Shown here one piece after another: positions 40,786 to 50,874 of a DNA stretch of 64,000 nt (within the stretch, counting starts at the first letter, position 1; every line of letters starts with the position of its first letter). The stretch lies in UHGV virus genome UHGV-0117634. One strand, written 5' to 3'. The notes below the pieces were generated by a model. The model saw nothing but the letters and a program-made list of their open reading frames with translations. It had not been told where the DNA came from and made no database searches. Origin of the DNA: a virus. The translations under genes and the position numbers were made by a program.

Positions 40786-40812
40786 AAAAGGCTCCCGTAA
40801 AAAGGAGCCTTA
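40786..40812. terminator. bidirectional rho-independent terminator between converging operons
   Basis: AAAAAAGGCTCCCGTAAAAAGGAGCCTT flanked by A-run and T-run; lies between thyA (+) and 40816..41190 (-). Confidence 0.65.
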
Positions 40813-40815
40813 TAG

Positions 40816-41190
40816 TTATTTCTTTTTAGTGCTTTGGGTATTTTGTTCTGTAATTGCCTGCAAAGCTGATACAGATTGTGCTAAGTTGTTAACACTGTCA
40901 GAGAACTTATCAAGGGTCTTAGTCAACTTAGCGTTTTCTCCCTTAACATTCTCTAGCTGAACTTTCTGGTTCTCCATCCCTAATTGTAGGAGCTTCATAT
41001 CAGATTGTAAGTCACGAATAGCTGAATAGTTACCTTTTGAGTAACCATCCAACTGCTGTAACTTATTTGTGATAGACACTTCCTGTTTACCATCAGAGAC
41101 CTGCATTGTAGTGTACATACCAATTACACTGAAAATACCTACAACGATTGCACCAATATTATTCTTAAAAGCATCTTCAAGCCACTTCAT
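40816..41190 (-). CDS. membrane-anchored coiled-coil protein (124 aa)
   Basis: N-terminal TMD (IGAIVVGIFSVIGMY) then heptad-rich region; no embedded lipoprotein ORF seen. Confidence 0.45.
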   Translation of the reverse strand: MKWLEDAFKNNIGAIVVGIFSVIGMYTTMQVSDGKQEVSITNKLQQLDGYSKGNYSAIRDLQSDMKLLQLGMENQKVQLENVKGENAKLTKTLDKFSDSVNNLAQSVSALQAITEQNTQSTKKK

Positions 41191-41384
41191 TATTTCTCAC
41201 CTTTAAAAGCCTTTTCCAAGGTATCTACAAATTCATCATCAATAGGTGTATCTGTTTTACTCGCAAGGTATCTTGCAAGCTTAAAGAACACTTTTTCAAT
41301 CATGTATTCGCTAAGAAGAGAAAGTAGAAGCTTCCAGAAGAATGCCCCAAGATTTTTCAAGAGGATTGCTAGAATGGTTGGCAT
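41190..41384 (-). CDS. small single-TMD protein (64 aa), holin-like
   Basis: Hydrophobic N-terminus, charged C-terminus; located after tail fiber genes with its own promoter. Confidence 0.4.
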   Translation of the reverse strand: MPTILAILLKNLGAFFWKLLLSLLSEYMIEKVFFKLARYLASKTDTPIDDEFVDTLEKAFKGEK

Positions 41385-41470: not shown

Positions 41471-43846
41471 TTATGCAGTTCTTACCCAAGCCATTAGTTT
41501 AATGTAAGTGTTAAGAACACTGAATGCTGCACCAGAACCAGTTGCCCTAGTGTTACCACTGAATGTGTGGTTGTGTCTACCAATACCTACACCGTGACCA
41601 TGAGCACCTACCCAACTAGTTCTACCTGTCCAAGTTCTGGAAGCATAGAAGTTAACTGGCGCACCATAAGTGAAGTTAGAACCAGTGAAACTATGACCAC
41701 CTTGGCTACCACTCATTGCAAAAGCACCGTCTGCAAGGTAAAATGACTCATTATCACTTCTAAACCATCCAAAGTTACCAGAGATTTCCATATTACCTCT
41801 GTCGTGGTCGTGAGCACCATTAACATCTGTGTACTTAGTACCATAGTCAAACCAAGAAGTTGTTCCAGAGAAGCTGTGAGTGTGTGCAGGGATGTGACCA
41901 ACACTTAATGCAACCGTATCAGCACCACCAAGACCCTTCACATCAGAACCATTTTCAGAACCAATCCTAATAGTTCTGTTTGCACCCTCAGTTAAGTAAG
42001 TCCAAGTAGTGCCTGGGAAAGCTGTATTTGGGTTGACATTAGAAGCAAAGAACGCCACAATACCAACCGGATACACTTTCTTAAGGTCTGTAGCATCAGT
42101 TACAGCGGAAGCAATACGTTGGTCCACTTCAGCCTTGGTGTAAGCACCAAGTTCAGAGGGTGTAGGTTTGTCTTTGTCGGTGTAGATTTTAGCCCAAGCC
42201 TCTTCAAAACCAAACCCATCCCTTGCTGTTCTATAATAGATTCCAGTATTCTTGTAGTTAAATTTAAACTGTGCAGTTGGTGTAGATGCACCAACTCCAA
42301 GGTACATTTGGTAAACTAAGTGAGTAGACCCACCAGTTGAATTTGTAACACTGTACAAACCTGTTTTTGCATCCCAAGCAACACCTGTGCCATCACCTAC
42401 TTCTGTTCCAGTTCCAGATACACCAGACAACATATATCTTGAGTTTGCAGCAGATTGTGTGTAGTATCTTGAGTCAAAGTTTGACCAATCGCTTGGTCTT
42501 ACTTGTCCAACAATATTCATATGTGTATTCACATCTAAATCAGTACCAATATTGATTGCCTTTCCTGTTACATCATTGTTAAGTACCACATTGTTTTGAC
42601 CAGCATCACCAATACCCAACCACCATCTCCTGCTCCCATTAGCATTATGTGCAGACATGTAGATTCCAGAGTCTTGTACTGTTGCCTGTAGTCTAAAAGG
42701 ATTGTCGCTGTCAGTATTGATAGTCTGTGGACTAGTAAAAACGTTTGCAGCATTAGTTCTTGCAAGAACGTTCGTCAAAGAGCTTGGAACATATCTTGTA
42801 TCAAAGTTAGAAAAGTCACTTGGTTTTACCTGACCAGCTACATTGATAGCTTTGTTAAATGAAAACTCTGTAGCAATTTTCAAGTTAACATTTGTCATCT
42901 GGTTTGCTAAAACAATCTCAGACTGCGTACCATCTGGTTGACCTACATACCAAGCACCTGTCCCAGCACTGTTGTAACCACGCATAAATAATGCAGCATT
43001 CTCTGAAGCCGCTCTTAAGTTAAGTGCATTCCTATCTGCAATAACATAAGTCTTCCCGTTGAAGTTGTTAACCCCAACAAAGTTATTACTTGCATTAAGT
43101 CTTGCAAATCTCTGGTCAGCAGCAGTCTGTGTAAAGAATCTTGCATCAAGGTTGTTCCAGTTATTAGGCTGAACCTGACCATTGATTTTAAAGTTCTTGT
43201 CAACACTAACAGAGTTTGTACCAAGAGTCAACGTAGCACCTTTGCTGTTAACTAATGTAACATCAGTCCCAGAAGTCAAGTTACCAACTGTGAATCTCAA
43301 AGCATTATTTGAGTCTCTTGCTTCAATATATGCTCCACCATCTGGTAAGATGCTTTTAAGTGTCAAACCAACACCGTTGATATTAATGATTTGTCTTGCC
43401 AAGAAGGTATTTTCAGTTTCCTTCATAGCGTATCTTGCATCATTTTCAGTATTAGTTCTCATACCTAATTCATTAGGAGATGGTTTATTAAGTGTGTGAT
43501 AAACTGTTGCAGACCTTGTGGCATCATTTACAGTTAATCTTAAAGCACTTGCATTAATTCTAAAGGTCTTGGCAGTGTCACCGAGAATAACCTCAGAAGA
43601 ACCTGTTGGGTCTAATAAGTCTTTTCCACCGTATCTTAATTTGACGATGCCAAGATTCCCTGTCATATCCCCACCAGTTAGTTGTAAGAATCTTTCTAGT
43701 TTGAAAGAGGCAAGGAAATTTGCATAGGTCATTTTACGGTCTTCATCACCTAGCATATCAGACCTTTTGATAATTCTTAGGTGAAGTAAATCTTCTGAGC
43801 GAACTGTATCAATACTGTTTAGCTCACTTAGCTTATATTCAGCCAT
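41471..43846 (-). CDS. tail fiber protein (long) with C-terminal HxH-motif domain
   Basis: 791 aa; C-terminal HTHSF..FDYGTK..GAHDHD..GAHGHGVGIGRHNHTF; N-terminus similar to the adjacent fiber. Confidence 0.65.
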   Translation of the reverse strand: MAEYKLSELNSIDTVRSEDLLHLRIIKRSDMLGDEDRKMTYANFLASFKLERFLQLTGGDMTGNLGIVKLRYGGKDLLDPTGSSEVILGDTAKTFRINASALRLTVNDATRSATVYHTLNKPSPNELGMRTNTENDARYAMKETENTFLARQIININGVGLTLKSILPDGGAYIEARDSNNALRFTVGNLTSGTDVTLVNSKGATLTLGTNSVSVDKNFKINGQVQPNNWNNLDARFFTQTAADQRFARLNASNNFVGVNNFNGKTYVIADRNALNLRAASENAALFMRGYNSAGTGAWYVGQPDGTQSEIVLANQMTNVNLKIATEFSFNKAINVAGQVKPSDFSNFDTRYVPSSLTNVLARTNAANVFTSPQTINTDSDNPFRLQATVQDSGIYMSAHNANGSRRWWLGIGDAGQNNVVLNNDVTGKAINIGTDLDVNTHMNIVGQVRPSDWSNFDSRYYTQSAANSRYMLSGVSGTGTEVGDGTGVAWDAKTGLYSVTNSTGGSTHLVYQMYLGVGASTPTAQFKFNYKNTGIYYRTARDGFGFEEAWAKIYTDKDKPTPSELGAYTKAEVDQRIASAVTDATDLKKVYPVGIVAFFASNVNPNTAFPGTTWTYLTEGANRTIRIGSENGSDVKGLGGADTVALSVGHIPAHTHSFSGTTSWFDYGTKYTDVNGAHDHDRGNMEISGNFGWFRSDNESFYLADGAFAMSGSQGGHSFTGSNFTYGAPVNFYASRTWTGRTSWVGAHGHGVGIGRHNHTFSGNTRATGSGAAFSVLNTYIKLMAWVRTA

Positions 43847-43890
43847 TTATAAATCCTCTTTCTAGGGGCTGTGTAGCCCCTTATAAATAA

Positions 43891-45066
43891 TTACGCAGTT
43901 CTCTTCCAAACATATACAACATAAGAAGGTTGCTCAATATTAAATGCTTGTCCAGCACCAAATGCACCAGTTGTACCTGAGTGAGTGTGCTCAGAAGATT
44001 GAACTGTCACAGTACCTGAGTGTCCATGTGAACCAATTGCAACGCTGTGTCCATGTGCTCCGATATACACACTGTGAGAGTGGTTACCACCAACTGAAGA
44101 GTTAACGTTGAAGGTATGTGTGTGAACCCCATCAAAGTCTGTATATGACGCATTACCAACACCTGCATCAGCCGTTGCCGTAATAGCGTTTACACCACCC
44201 CTGTCAGAACCCCTCAATGGAATCCTGTGGCTGTGACTACCAGCACTGCTTACAGAACCATTAACATTATGAGCGTGGCTTCCAGAGTCGTTTGTGGCCT
44301 TAGAACCATAATCAAAACTTGATGTGCTCTTAGTCCCATAGTCAAAGCTAGAAATTACTACTGTTGCATTATGGGAGTGTCCACCACCAGTTAACAACAC
44401 AGAGTGTGTGTGACTTGGAATGTTATTTTGTGTAAGTGTTACAGTAGCAGAACCAAATACTGATTCTACAGGTCTTGTATCTGTGTCATAACCGACAAGA
44501 GACCTTCCTTTAGAAACTAACTCCCAAGTACCACCACAAAGTAAATATGTAGATGGGTTTGCAGGGTTAACTGACAAATGAATAGTACCAATTGGATAGC
44601 TATTCTGGATAGCTCTATATAAAGCATTCACAGCTTTTGCAGTAGCATACTTATCAGCATCTTCAGAGTAAGAGTTTGAATATGTCCAGTTTTGAATATT
44701 AGACAAACCTACTTGAATCTTGTTAGTGTTGTGAGGGTTATTCTTGTCATTAATGTGATTTTGAATAAGGGCATTAACTTCATCACTTGATAGAATATTA
44801 AGGTTCTGTCTAGCCTCTTCAACACTAACCACGTCTGACAAGTTATTAGCAGCCACTAATTGGAGTGCGTTAACAACATTACCAAGTTCTACGTGAACCT
44901 TTGTAACACCGTGTGGGTTATTTCTTAAAGATGCGTGTGGAGCAAGTAATTGCTCAAGTGTGCATCGTTTATCCTCAATACCTTGCTTCAGGTGAAAGAT
45001 ATCACTTAAATCAATCGGTAATGAGGCTTGAGGCAATGCACTAATTTGAATTTCACCGACTGCCAT
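43891..45066 (-). CDS. tail fiber protein with HxH-repeat receptor-binding domain
   Basis: Repeated HTHS, GHSHN, SHAHN, SHSHR, HTHTF, NHSHS, AHGHS, SHGHS, HTHS motifs; FDYGTK repeats. Confidence 0.65.
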   Translation of the reverse strand: MAVGEIQISALPQASLPIDLSDIFHLKQGIEDKRCTLEQLLAPHASLRNNPHGVTKVHVELGNVVNALQLVAANNLSDVVSVEEARQNLNILSSDEVNALIQNHINDKNNPHNTNKIQVGLSNIQNWTYSNSYSEDADKYATAKAVNALYRAIQNSYPIGTIHLSVNPANPSTYLLCGGTWELVSKGRSLVGYDTDTRPVESVFGSATVTLTQNNIPSHTHSVLLTGGGHSHNATVVISSFDYGTKSTSSFDYGSKATNDSGSHAHNVNGSVSSAGSHSHRIPLRGSDRGGVNAITATADAGVGNASYTDFDGVHTHTFNVNSSVGGNHSHSVYIGAHGHSVAIGSHGHSGTVTVQSSEHTHSGTTGAFGAGQAFNIEQPSYVVYVWKRTA

Positions 45067-45068
45067 TA

Positions 45069-45368
45069 TTAGCTCCCTTTATATTCATATGTGTAAAGGT
45101 TAGTCGTGCTGGTGTGTGCAGTTCCTGTTACTGTTTCAATTAATTCCCAACCATTGGAAACTAAATCAGGTTGCTCCGTAGCAAATGAACGAACCTCTCC
45201 AACCGTACCATTTACTTTGTTAAGCAAATAGTTGATAATATAGTTAAACCACTGACGACCCATAGGTTCACCCCTTAATAGGCCAGTGGCTTGAATTTCT
45301 GGAGGTGGTAAAACTTTAAGCTGGTTACCGTCAGCATCAACTGTATCTGTAGACCATGAAAGAGACAT
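45069..45368 (-). CDS. small tail/baseplate-associated protein (99 aa)
   Basis: Position between baseplate genes and fibers. Confidence 0.35.
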
Positions 45369-46264
45369 TATGAACTTCCTTCTTGTTGAGATTTATCTTT
45401 TCTGCCTTTGACGATTTGGGCGACTTCTGCCATAATCCCATAATCACCACCTGCTACTGTTTCTTTACCAGCAATGAAATAGTCGTTGCTATTGTTTGTT
45501 TTGCTGACTTTTAAATAATCTTTACTGGTACTTCCACCAGTTTTATCCACTCTTACATAACCATCCCTTACACCTGCATCTGCAAAACTACCTAATTTGT
45601 TTGCTTCTAGAGAGCCACCTGTGTTGTTCGTAATAAGACCCTTGTTAGTGTTTGTTACAAACCAGTTATTGTTCTCATCAGTAATTGCCAGAGATGAATC
45701 AGCAACCTCTACAGGAGTCCAAGCAGTACCATTTAAGGTAACATCTCTAAGGATAACTGCTGAACCAATAGTTGTTGCAGCAATCTTAGAAAGTGTGTAT
45801 GCTGTATCTAACACGTTATTACGAGTGTTTACACGGATAACAATTCCACCAGTCATTGGCGTAATGTGCTCAAAAATCTGACTGAATGATGCGTTGTAAA
45901 GGGTCATAACAGCCCTTTGTAAGAAGCTTGGTGTGGTGTCAGAACGTCTTAAGAAAATTTGAATGTAGAGGATAGCTCTGTAAGTGTCATCATCAGCACC
46001 AATAGGTCTAGGGACTTTAATCAAAGCCCCGATGTTATCAAGTTGTGTGCCAACACCTACACGAATATTCCTTTCAGTATATAACTGATTACTGATATCC
46101 TCTAATAATTGTAACTCATCTGTGATAGATTTCAATAGACTTGTGTAAATAAACTTATCTTTGAATTGAGTTACAGTTCTTTCGTCCAATGTTTTCTCAT
46201 AAAAGTTTTCAATCTTTTTAAACATTGTTACTCCTTGGTAATTGTATACTGTGAGCTTTCCCAA
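45368..46264 (-). CDS. baseplate protein (P2 gpI-like position)
   Basis: Synteny only. Confidence 0.35.
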
Positions 46265-47697
46265 ACAGTGTACTGGTCACCATCAATAGTGATTCTTGAA
46301 GTTGTGTACTGCCCCTCAGCAGGTGGAATTGCTTGGTTATTTGAAAGTGCAACCTTAATCTCATTAATCTCGATACCTTGAATCACATCATAGATATGTC
46401 CATAGATTCTGTTAGGGATTACATCATTACCAACTTTCAAAGTTCTACCGTAGGCATTAATACCTTGAACAATTCTGTCATGAATATCCTGTTCAGGGAT
46501 GTTAAGAGTTTCTTCATCGTAAAGAGAGTAAGTAACCTTGACAAAAACGTATTTAGGCATTGGTCTACTAAAGTAAACGTCGTGAGGAAGAGAACCTAAG
46601 TCATATGCAGTACCAAAGATTGTACCAAATGGGCGAATACCAGCAGGTTTCGTGTCCCAGATTGCCTGTGCAATATTATCATTCTGACCACCAACTACAA
46701 CAATCTTAAAAGACTTCGGAGGAAGACCGTCAGCGTTTGTTGTCTCAGTATCATTTTCTACACCAGAAGCATCAGACACACCTTGCACTCTCTTGACAGC
46801 AGCTACAATAGCATCTAGAGTACCTACACCAGTAACAGCCAGAGATTCTAAGTAACGCTGTCTCAGTTCTGTGTCAGTTTCCTCATCACGACCTGTTGTC
46901 AAGTCATATCTGTTGAAAACACTATCAAGACCATCTACAGTTGTTTCAATCTCAATCAAGGTTCCTGCAAGAGTCTGGATAGCTCCAGTTTCATCTGCTA
47001 CAACGTCACTGATTGAAGTAATCTTTGTAAATGTTAAGAATGTCGTTGCAGTAACAACCATAGGGTTAGTTCTGGCAATGATATCTCCAGTGTCTTTATA
47101 GATTCTTAGGACTGAACCATCATTAATAACTTCAGCCTTTGCAATAATACCACCATTGATAGCATCTGCAAGTTTCTGTAGCAATGTTGTAATGGTGTCA
47201 GAGCTAGTCGGCTGATATGAATACTCAATGTTGTCAATGATAATAACATAGTTTGCATCTGTTCGTAAAGAGTTAACTTCTAAGTTTGCCTCTACACAGT
47301 AAGATGGAGTCAGCGTGAAAGTTGACACAGGGTAAAAGATGTTACCTGCTGTGCTTCTTAGTCTTGTAGTGGCTGGTACAGGAGCACCAGAATTACCAGT
47401 GAACTCAGCTTGACCTCTTGTAGCCTGCGCCACATATCTGTATACAGCATTCAAAGCTGTTACATCATCTAAACTGAATCCTTCAGCTTTGTCAATAGTA
47501 CCACCGTCATAAATTTCTGACAAGATTTCATGAACGTCTGCAAGACCTCGGCAAACAGAAGCTAAGAATAACCCAAGTTCGCTATCTTCAGAAACATCAA
47601 GGTTTGGTGAGATATCTCTATACAGACTTGCTTTAACATCATCCAAGATTTCTTGATATCTTTTTGTTTGTAAACCTGTAGTTGTTAATCCAGCCAT
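46228..47697 (-). CDS. baseplate J-like protein
   Basis: Synteny (V-W-J-I order), 489 aa. Confidence 0.4.

Positions 47698-48112: not shown

Positions 48113-48113
<1 letters not shown>
47697..48113 (-). CDS. baseplate wedge protein (gpW/gp25-like)
   Basis: 138 aa, position between spike-like and J-like genes. Confidence 0.4.

Positions 48114-50874
<2,761 letters not shown>

Follow-up and report, generated by a model that had tools for sequence, protein, structure and literature searches.

Background

The closest described relatives of the locus analysed here are the tail fibre systems of two Ounavirinae phages whose structures were published in 2025. In the Mooglevirus Sf14, trimers of the fibre proteins gp52 (391 aa) and gp53 (792 aa) were docked into the map of the tail, the receptor-like domain of gp52 was placed "in the center" of the fibre, and the HxH motifs of the fibres are not discussed (Commun Biol 2025, PMC11821841). 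In Bas63, from the sister genus Felixounavirus, the architecture is the same: the short tail fibre (STF, gp26) and the long tail fibre (LTF, gp27) share a domain at the N-terminus that binds the baseplate, both carry a gp37-like collar, an HxH needle and a head, and the spike has an HxH motif of its own (Sci Adv 2025, PMC12609058; baseplate PDB 9NDY). The N-terminal domain of the Bas63 LTF binds a small LTF platform protein and domain 2 of wedge 2A is the binding site of the STF N-terminal domain (PMC12609058). About 52% identity is reported between the fibres of Sf14 and Bas63, and the published AlphaFold trimers of both sets of homologues fit their cryo-EM density (PMC11821841; PMC12609058). 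Both fibres and their common N-terminus are hence already known from these two papers, as are the tips, with their gp37-like collar, needle and head and their HxH motifs, and the HxH site of the spike.

The fold itself is that of the tip of gp37, a protein of the long tail fibre of T4 (PDB 2XGF). Accounts of this protein describe a collar, a needle and a head with a chain that doubles back (PMC12609058), seven Fe atoms along the needle, histidines H929/H931 that are essential, and a requirement for the chaperones gp38 and gp57A. Here we compare a Mooglevirus fibre locus with these systems, a comparison that shows homology, motif register, synteny and mosaicism.

Organization of the fibre locus

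The window, a stretch of 64,000 nucleotides from virus genome UHGV-0117634, is part of a Mooglevirus genome. Its gene order is that of Shigella phages ESh19 and Sf13-Sf19 and of Citrobacter phage KMM2, to which its DNA is 95-97% identical. Both fibre ORFs were found where an earlier sequence-only reading had placed two tail fibre genes, adjacent and co-oriented on the minus strand. The gene order is that of the Ounavirinae fibre locus, namely wedge 2, wedge 1, LTF platform, short fibre and long fibre, followed by small ORFs and a convergent thymidylate synthase.

48113..48754, minus strand: central spike/puncture apparatus, 213 aa, homologue of Sf14 gp47 (PF18352; PDB 9NDY chain G)
46228..47697, minus strand: wedge protein 2 of the baseplate, 489 aa (Pfam Baseplate_J; PDB 9NDY chain H, E 2.2e-278)
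45069..45368, minus strand: LTF platform protein, 99 aa (E 5.9e-55 to "LTF platform protein (gp025)", PDB 9NDY chain S)
43891..45066, minus strand: short tail fibre of 391 aa, homologous to Sf14 gp52 and Bas63 STF gp26 (phrog_2097 "tail fiber", E 4e-131)
41471..43846, minus strand: long tail fibre of 791 aa, homologous to Sf14 gp53 and Bas63 LTF gp27 (end-to-end match to phrog_4277 "tail fiber", 1284 bits)

Sf14 has the same fibre genes in the same order and of the same lengths. The short fibre is essentially identical to gp52 (identical tip, one residue of difference in the whole protein), and the long fibre shows about 91% DNA identity to gp53, from which it differs in a shaft patch (aa ~351-450) that is only 32-64% identical and in substitutions scattered over the head. 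By analogy with Bas63, whose long fibre is seated on the small platform protein and whose short fibre is seated on wedge 2, the LTF platform would be the attachment point of the long fibre and wedge protein 2 that of the short one. The platform ORF lies upstream of both fibre genes. It was considered as a candidate fibre chaperone because its product was undetected in Sf14 virions by mass spectrometry, and was rejected, being the structural LTF platform of Bas63 (9NDY).

Domain structure of the two fibres

The short fibre carries an N-terminal motif and a receptor-binding tip.

44941..45048, minus strand: N-terminal baseplate-binding motif of the short fibre, aa 7-42, QISALPQASLPIDLSDIFHLKQGIEDKRCTLEQLLA (weak similarity to the long-fibre N-terminus; Sf14 and Bas63 papers)
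43894..44631, minus strand: short-fibre tip, aa 146-391, with collar, needle carrying 9 HxH motifs, and head (2XGF, Gp10_C, HxH positions, three-way alignment with T4)
44125..44226, minus strand: aa ~281-314 of the short fibre, predicted to be its distal head, where the chain would turn and fold back (T4 gp37 alignment)

The tip matches the T4 gp37 tip over aa 146-363 (2XGF, E 4.2e-25) and, less strongly, the T4 gp10 structures (E 5e-7). The Pfam profile Gp10_C (cut-off 27 bits) scores 63.5 bits, its positions 4-139 being spread over aa 155-390, and the needle is an excursion inside this span. The nine HxH motifs lie between aa 219 and 362, four on the outgoing and five on the returning strand, a number never reached in 5000 composition-preserving shuffles of the protein (mean 1.5, maximum 7). 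FDYGTK stands at aa 241 and a variant, FDYGSK, at aa 251. The predicted head aligns with the T4 gp37 head between H929/H931 and H966/H968 and is the segment that varies most among relatives; the alignment with 2XGF suggests that what lies centrally in the sequence of gp52 would be the spatial tip of the fibre. Relatives of this tip occur in 705 phage records, among them T4-type gp37, the side tail fibres of lambdoid phages and FelixO1.

The long fibre adds a shaft and a further domain ahead of its tip.

43709..43831, minus strand: N-terminal baseplate-binding motif of the long fibre, aa 6-46, ...SEDLLHLR...GDEDRKMTYANFLA (weak similarity to the short-fibre N-terminus; Sf14 and Bas63 papers)
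42419..43708, minus strand: shaft with three gp37_trimer (PF20744) repeats (Pfam E 4e-45, three stretches)
42089..42418, minus strand: gp37_C (PF12604) domain, aa 477-586 (Pfam E 1e-17; phage Mu fibre S, PDB 8JU3, E 1.3e-21)
41474..42085, minus strand: long-fibre tip, aa 588-791, with collar, short needle carrying 4 HxH motifs, and enlarged head (2XGF; BLASTP match with the short tip)
41603..41803, minus strand: His-free head cassette, aa 682-748, between HDH and HGH (alignment with T4 gp37)

Each shaft repeat closes with GQVxPxxxxNxDxR(F/Y), at aa 223, 338 and 447. The match to Mu fibre S pairs aa 476-581 with Mu S aa 327-429; in Mu this gp37_C-type domain is followed by another kind of receptor-binding end, dependent on a Tfa-type chaperone, whereas in the long fibre the collar and HxH tip come next. 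Taken as a single sequence the long tip matches 2XGF only marginally (E 8.9e-4), but a profile of 26 sequences raises the match to E 1.9e-19. Gp10_C scores 24.5 bits in the long tip, below its cut-off of 27; homologues of the long fibre carry PF21939 and PF03335, and its collar aligns with the short-fibre collar. A Gp10_C collar bracketing the needle would accordingly be identified directly for the short fibre and for the long fibre only indirectly. The four HxH motifs (aa 655-760, two on the outgoing and two on the returning strand) again exceed anything seen in 5000 composition-preserving shuffles (mean 0.3, maximum 3), and FDYGTK is present at aa 666. An AlphaFold2 monomer model of aa 588-791, built on a 22-sequence alignment, reached a pLDDT of 48 and a pTM of 0.24, low scores of the kind to be expected when an obligate intertwined trimer is modelled as a monomer; this model being unusable, the fold-back topology rests on the sequence alignment and on the trimer predictions published for relatives.

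In a three-way alignment the HxH motifs of both fibres are in register with the seven sites of T4 gp37 (against nine in the short fibre and four in the long one), the four motifs of the long fibre corresponding to T4 sites 1, 2, 6 and 7 and the head cassette standing in place of sites 3-5. T4 gp37 has the same succession of collar, HxH needle and head, and it shares FDYGTK and IGAHxHxVxIGSHGH. These similarities support the reading of both tips as T4 gp37-type receptor-binding tips, as had been proposed from the HxH repeats. The differences are that the proteins end in ...W(V/K)RTA instead of the ...YIVRLA of T4 gp37, and that gp37 forms the distal part of a T4 fibre built from four proteins, while a single protein makes up each fibre here and no chaperone gene lies next to it. 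The authors of the Bas63 study count seven HxH motifs in the STF and six in the LTF, against nine and four in our plain motif count; the phages are different and those authors may have counted differently (PMC12609058). A further difference from the Bas63 LTF is that in the long fibre here the His-free head cassette takes the place of distal HxH sites.

This cassette belongs to a conserved arrangement, HxH-RGxMxIxG...GAF...FxASxxWxGxT..GxHxH, found in 40+ protein clusters. Its profile had no match in the PDB (the best, E 0.47, is spurious) and found nothing in Pfam except flanking fibre repeats; the best match in the representative search, P0054 (29 stretches), was discarded as a tandem-repeat artefact. 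We advance only tentatively the idea that the distal end of the long fibre is a distinct, non-T4-like receptor-binding cassette of ~67 His-free residues, exchanged among Ounavirinae long fibres, lambdoid and T4-type side tail fibres and many uncultured phage fibres.

Relationships between the fibres and alternative explanations

The sequence-only reading had taken the sharing of modules by adjacent fibres as a sign of domain shuffling, and such sharing could in principle come from a recent event in this genome, either duplication of a fibre gene or conversion of one by the other, as the genes are adjacent and co-oriented and have a homologous tip and FDYGTK in common. The pairwise alignment proposed with that reading is significant (BLASTP, long aa 588-791 against short aa 153-391, 29% identity, E 3e-16), and the homology of the HxH-rich ends is thereby upheld. 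However, the amino-acid identity between the tips is only 28-29%, and a sensitive blastn search (word size 7) yields a single DNA match of 34 nt at 82% identity. T4 gp37 is closer to the short tip (37% identity over 214 aa, E 3e-29) than the long tip is, and each fibre type is conserved separately across Mooglevirus and Felixounavirus. We consider a recent event of this kind hardly credible, and rejected recent gene conversion as effectively refuted by the DNA comparison; the two tips are instead old paralogues that have undergone no recent exchange. What stands of the shuffling claim is the exchange of cassettes, which is shown by comparing genomes and not by the likeness of the adjacent genes. 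The long-fibre tip is closer to a Felixounavirus tip than to the tips of Citrobacter phages of the same genus. The N-termini present a different problem, since the resemblance that had been noticed there, with a common core D(L/I)xHL(K/R)...GxED(RK/KR)(M/C)T...(F/L)LA, could be due to chance and the fibres could attach through unrelated domains. The pairwise Smith-Waterman score is 31, with p only about 0.02-0.04 against shuffles; hhalign gives P = 0.019 and a probability of 2.4%; no shared PHROG or Pfam family was found in scans of the isolated N-termini; and the docking partners differ in Bas63 (LTF platform and wedge 2), whose authors saw no apparent sequence conservation between the fibre N-terminal domains (PMC12609058). 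The profile-profile comparison is weak because large-database searches with the two N-termini retrieved only 6 and 2 close fragments, from which no diverse profile could be built. Against chance, a small profile of short-fibre-type N-termini, centred on GxED(K/R)(K/R)xT, ranks the long N-terminus ahead of 4997 shuffles out of 5000. The same motif was noticed independently by the Sf14 authors as an N-terminal EDRK(C/M)T (EDRKMT at aa 35-40 of the long fibre), with Cys35 of gp52 in the baseplate-binding region (PMC11821841), and cryo-EM and AlphaFold of Bas63 show the N-terminal domains of STF and LTF to be structurally conserved (PMC12609058). Mere coincidence is quite improbable, and the N-terminal resemblance appears weak and above chance.

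A further alternative concerns the histidines, which might be zipper residues with a structural role, binding zinc or some other metal in place of iron, or none. Metal identity is not readable from sequence, the collar-proximal motif (I/L)P(S/A)HTHS is part of the collar domain and not of the T4 needle proper, and no equivalent of T4 gp38 is encoded nearby, so that assembly differs from that of T4 in at least one respect. Nevertheless, the motifs are in register with the crystallographic iron sites of T4 gp37, the histidines H68, H70, H162 and H164 of the long tip (tip numbering) are invariant in 26 homologues, and the corresponding T4 histidines are essential. We regard this alternative as unlikely, if less so than the other two, and we infer by homology that both tips bind metal.

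Central spike and folding of the fibres

The His cluster that had been pointed out in the spike is confirmed.

48155..48181, minus strand: NEHTHHYYW, aa 192-200, with HxH H194/H196, a predicted metal site at the spike apex (identical in 9NDY_G)

The spike carries an N-terminal PF18352 domain (70.2 bits against a cut-off of 26.1) and matches the Bas63 puncture apparatus over its full length (9NDY chain G, E 2.4e-128), in which the cluster is kept residue for residue. H194/H196 occupy the same positions in Sf14, whose authors label them iron-binding rings and report an extra needle cap (PMC11821841), and the corresponding HxH of Bas63 is H188/H190 (PMC12609058); both groups proposed iron coordination from the geometry of the HxH motif. 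Spikes of the P2 gpV and phi92 gp138 type likewise combine an N-terminal PF18352 domain with a single HxH near the C-terminal apex, although direct comparison of the sequences gives a weak match to phi92 gp138 (E 0.002) that is limited to the N-terminal domain.

Inspection of the ORFs downstream of the long fibre found no adjoining gene of the gp38/Tfa chaperone type, but proteins of 64 and 124 aa, belonging to PHROGs of unknown function, and then a terminator. Chaperone dependence belongs to T4 gp37 and is not a defining feature of the fold. As the Sf14 authors found no homologues of the Mu chaperone either (PMC11821841), folding of these fibres may differ from that of T4.

Discussion

Taken as a whole, the locus very probably encodes the short and long trimeric fibres of a Mooglevirus, with N-terminal baseplate-binding domains and gp37-type HxH tips; the trimer topology, the occupancy and identity of the metals, and the receptor are predicted for these fibres. 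According to this model, the two genes would provide two sets of six trimeric tail fibres, each anchored to the baseplate by its short N-terminal domain, the long fibre on the 99-aa LTF platform and the short one on wedge protein 2. From a collar with the Gp10_C fold the chain would run outward, turn in a small head and return to the collar, so that three such fold-back chains would form a six-stranded needle in the trimer. Each HxH motif would contribute two histidines per chain to a six-histidine octahedral metal site on the fibre axis (Fe2+ in T4). The short fibre would have nine such sites, two more than T4, around a head of T4 size, and in the long fibre only the four sites nearest the collar would be kept, the three distal ones giving way to a larger head cassette that is free of His. 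This cassette is presumably the part that contacts the receptor, which is probably the LPS core, as proposed for Sf14. One analogous HxH site would be placed at the apex of the spike, as in P2 gpV and phi92 gp138.

To what the Sf14 and Bas63 papers report, our analysis makes modest additions: the exact motif counts, equivalent to nine and four predicted metal sites per trimer; the closer proximity of the long-fibre tip to a Felixounavirus tip than to those of Citrobacter phages of its own genus; and the delineation of a widespread His-free head cassette without a solved structure. These fibres set the host range of candidate therapeutic phages of Shigella, Citrobacter and E. coli. Distinguishing a scaffold, composed of the collar and the proximal HxH needle, from an exchangeable head shows engineers the cut points for specificity swaps, knowledge that for this locus is already contained in the two structural papers. 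If the long-fibre cassette is indeed distinct and exchanged, it would be a portable module for host range, having a fold and a class of receptor of its own.

The fibre locus and its relatives

The region holds two co-oriented fibre ORFs, with the baseplate genes upstream of both on the same strand and, downstream, two small ORFs, a bidirectional terminator and the convergent genes for thymidylate synthase and DHFR.

Features of the fibre region (window coordinates)
48113..48754 (-): spike, 213 aa
489-aa ORF: wedge protein 2 (9NDY_H, E 2.2e-278)
99-aa ORF directly upstream of the short fibre: counterpart of the Bas63 long tail fibre (LTF) platform (9NDY_S, E 5.9e-55)
43891..45066 (-): short fibre, 391 aa
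41471..43846 (-): long fibre, 791 aa
41603..41803 (-): head cassette in the distal head, long fibre aa 682-748
40816..41384 (-): two small ORFs, 3' of the long fibre and in the same orientation
40788..40811: bidirectional terminator

Megablast assigns the window to a Mooglevirus (Ounavirinae) genome. Across the fibre region, identity is 97% with Shigella phage ESh19 and Citrobacter phage BSwM KMM2 and about 95% with Shigella phages Sf13-Sf19, and the 25-kb stretch surrounding the fibres has the same relatives at about 97% identity. The annotated record of Sf14 shows the gene order found here, with gp52 (391 aa) and gp53 (792 aa) both given as tail fibres. The spike, wedge and platform proteins were matched to the baseplate structure (PDB 9NDY) of the Felixounavirus Bas63, in which the platform carries the long fibre and domain 2 of wedge 2A carries the short one (PMC12609058). 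The ORF at 45368..46264 (-) was called mechanically as 298 aa with a TTG start; because its PHROG match runs from residue 14 on and its homologues in Sf14, Moogle and Bas63 have 285 aa, its true start is probably the ATG at 46225. The first of the two small ORFs (64 aa) falls in phrog_402, of unknown function, while the second (124 aa) is labelled a putative holin in relatives and matches phrog_4038, a family likewise of unknown function; its Sf14 homologue, gp55, was detected by mass spectrometry in virions (PMC11821841), which is odd for a holin.

Two fibre tips of the T4 type

The sequence-only reading had described an HxH-rich C-terminal module and an FDYGTK motif shared by the two fibres, and both go far beyond chance. 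BLASTP aligned short-fibre aa 153-391 with long-fibre aa 588-791 at 29% identity (E 3e-16), and FDYGTK stands at aa 241 of the short fibre and aa 666 of the long one, with a second copy, FDYGSK, at short-fibre aa 251. There are nine HxH motifs in the short fibre (aa 219-362) and four in the long fibre (aa 655-760), these being plain motif counts, so that comparison with the numbers given for Bas63, 7 and 6, may not be valid (PMC12609058). Neither number was reached when each protein or tip was shuffled 5000 times (means of 1.5 and 0.3-0.4 and maxima of 7 and 3 for short and long, respectively). The two FDYG copies of the short fibre belong to a tandem 10-aa repeat, SSFDYGTKST / SSFDYGSKAT (aa 239-258; window 44293..44352, -); extra copies are found in Moogle (three FDYG) and Michonne (FDHG variants), so that the repeat number of the outgoing needle strand varies among relatives.

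That these tips are of the T4 type was also essentially right. The short tip (aa 146-391) matched the receptor-binding tip of T4 gp37 as solved by crystallography (2XGF) with E 4.2e-25, and both the FDYGTK repeats and the GxHxH series lie within the alignment. The first ~85 residues of the short tip match the T4 gp10 C-terminal domain as well, and the whole 139-position Pfam profile Gp10_C is spread over aa 155-390 (63.5 bits); the needle and head are therefore an excursion within the collar domain. As a single sequence the long tip (aa 588-791) is marginal (2XGF E 8.9e-4; Gp10_C 24.5 bits, under the cut-off of 27), and a profile of 26 long-tip homologues brought the 2XGF match to E 1.9e-19; PF21939 and PF03335 are the precomputed Pfam domains on such homologues.

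In PMC12609058 and other descriptions of the structure, the T4 gp37 tip consists of a collar, made up of residues 811-881 and 1010-1026, followed by a needle and a small head. HxH histidines, without which the tip does not function, bind seven iron atoms along the needle. The seven HxH motifs of gp37 are at residues 883, 915, 929, 966, 980, 989 and 998. Three-way alignment of both tips with gp37 gives the short fibre equivalents of all seven and one more per strand, making nine; the long fibre retains counterparts of sites 1, 2, 6 and 7 and has, in place of the distal sites 3-5, a His-free stretch of ~67 aa (aa 682-748). At 37% identity (E 3e-29), T4 gp37 is a closer match to the short tip than the adjacent long tip is. 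The 2XGF alignment also suggests that short-fibre aa ~281-314 (window 44125..44226, -), although central in the sequence, should form the spatial distal tip, as the chain folds back; the distal end of the Bas63 tip is likewise formed where the chain turns back (PMC12609058).

Each fibre would most likely be a homotrimer held at the baseplate by its N-terminal domain, its tip being a six-stranded needle that extends from the collar. Metal ions on the needle axis would staple the strands, with one HxH motif per ion supplying two histidines from each chain, six in all, and the head at the chain turn would contact the receptor. Going by the number of motifs, a trimer of the short fibre should have 9 sites and one of the long fibre 4, and we infer these numbers as we do the identity of the metal and the receptor; LPS outer core has been proposed as receptor for at least one Sf14 fibre (PMC11821841). 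How the tips fold is a question already raised in the field, because T4 gp37 requires gp38 and gp57A, while the immediate neighbourhood of the present fibres holds no chaperone gene and the authors of the Sf14 study found no homologues of the Mu chaperone (PMC11821841).

Baseplate attachment and the spike

The N-terminal motif claimed for both fibres is present in each (...SEDLLHLR...GDEDRKMTYANFLA in the long fibre and ...LSDIFHLKQGIEDKRCTLEQLLA in the short one), and its similarity is weak. Direct comparison of the two N-termini yielded a Smith-Waterman score of 31 (p ~0.02-0.04) and an hhalign P of 0.019 (probability 2.4%), scans of the isolated N-termini revealed no PHROG or Pfam family in common, and database searches returned too few relatives for deep profiles. 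Against a small profile of short-fibre N-termini and three other fibres, the long N-terminus was beaten by only 3 of 5000 shuffles, the signal centring on GxED(K/R)(K/R)xT. The same motif was assigned in Sf14 to the baseplate-binding region of both fibres (PMC11821841); at short-fibre aa 31-36 (window 44959..44976, -) the sequence reads E-D-K-R-C-T, in this genome as in the GenBank entry for Sf14.

The histidine cluster NEHTHHYYW noted in the spike is indeed there. The protein carries a PF18352 N-terminal domain (70.2 bits) and matches chain G of 9NDY, in the solved Bas63 puncture apparatus, end to end (E 2.4e-128), with the cluster identical. In the Sf14 spike, H194 and H196 (positions as here) are labelled as the two histidine rings of a predicted iron site, likened to those of Mu gp45 and P2 gpV (PMC11821841), and the Bas63 equivalents are H188/H190 (PMC12609058).

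Exchange of tips and heads between genomes

Module sharing between the adjacent fibres had been taken as a sign of domain shuffling, a view that fails for these two neighbours and holds between genomes. A recent exchange between the two genes was rejected, since their tips share just 28% amino acid identity, at the DNA level they resemble each other only over 34 nt at FDYGTK, and T4 gp37 is the closer match to the short tip. Exchange between genomes is clear from the comparisons. For long-fibre aa 651-791 (window 41474..41896, -), identity to the tip of the Felixounavirus NBEco004 is 78-84%, against just 18-68% for those of Moogle and Michonne, members of the same genus as the present phage whose tips have a different head and 7 and 6 HxH motifs, respectively; this points to tip exchange across genera. 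Across the 26 aligned long-tip homologues, a hypervariable centre is flanked by a conserved collar and proximal needle. A patch in the third shaft repeat (aa 351-450; window 42497..42796, -) has 32-64% identity to Sf14 between flanks of at least 88%, which explains why the megablast matches to Sf13-Sf19 are 94% covered and in 2 pieces. High variability of both tips and of the long-fibre beta-helix repeats is also described for Bas63 (PMC12609058).

The His-free head cassette is conserved and follows the pattern HxH-RGxMxIxG...GAF...FxASxxWxGxT...GxHxH, found in more than 40 protein clusters (50% identity clustering), some of whose members have a collar and C-terminus of the T4/lambda-Stf type, ending ...NIAFNYIVRLA. 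The cassette had no match in the PDB and, in Pfam, only weak single-member matches and flanking fibre repeats. In the Felixounavirus REP7, an Escherichia phage, the long-fibre head segment (protein P0015) differs little from the head of T4 gp37 and is a further case of head-cassette transfer between phage families.

Fibre tips of this kind are already described in the 95%-identical phage Sf14 and in Bas63 of the sister genus, and the FelixO1 fibre was labelled gp37-like in its first GenBank record. What the present fibres add is only mildly new and concerns the long fibre, namely its His-free head cassette and the relationship of its tip between genera.
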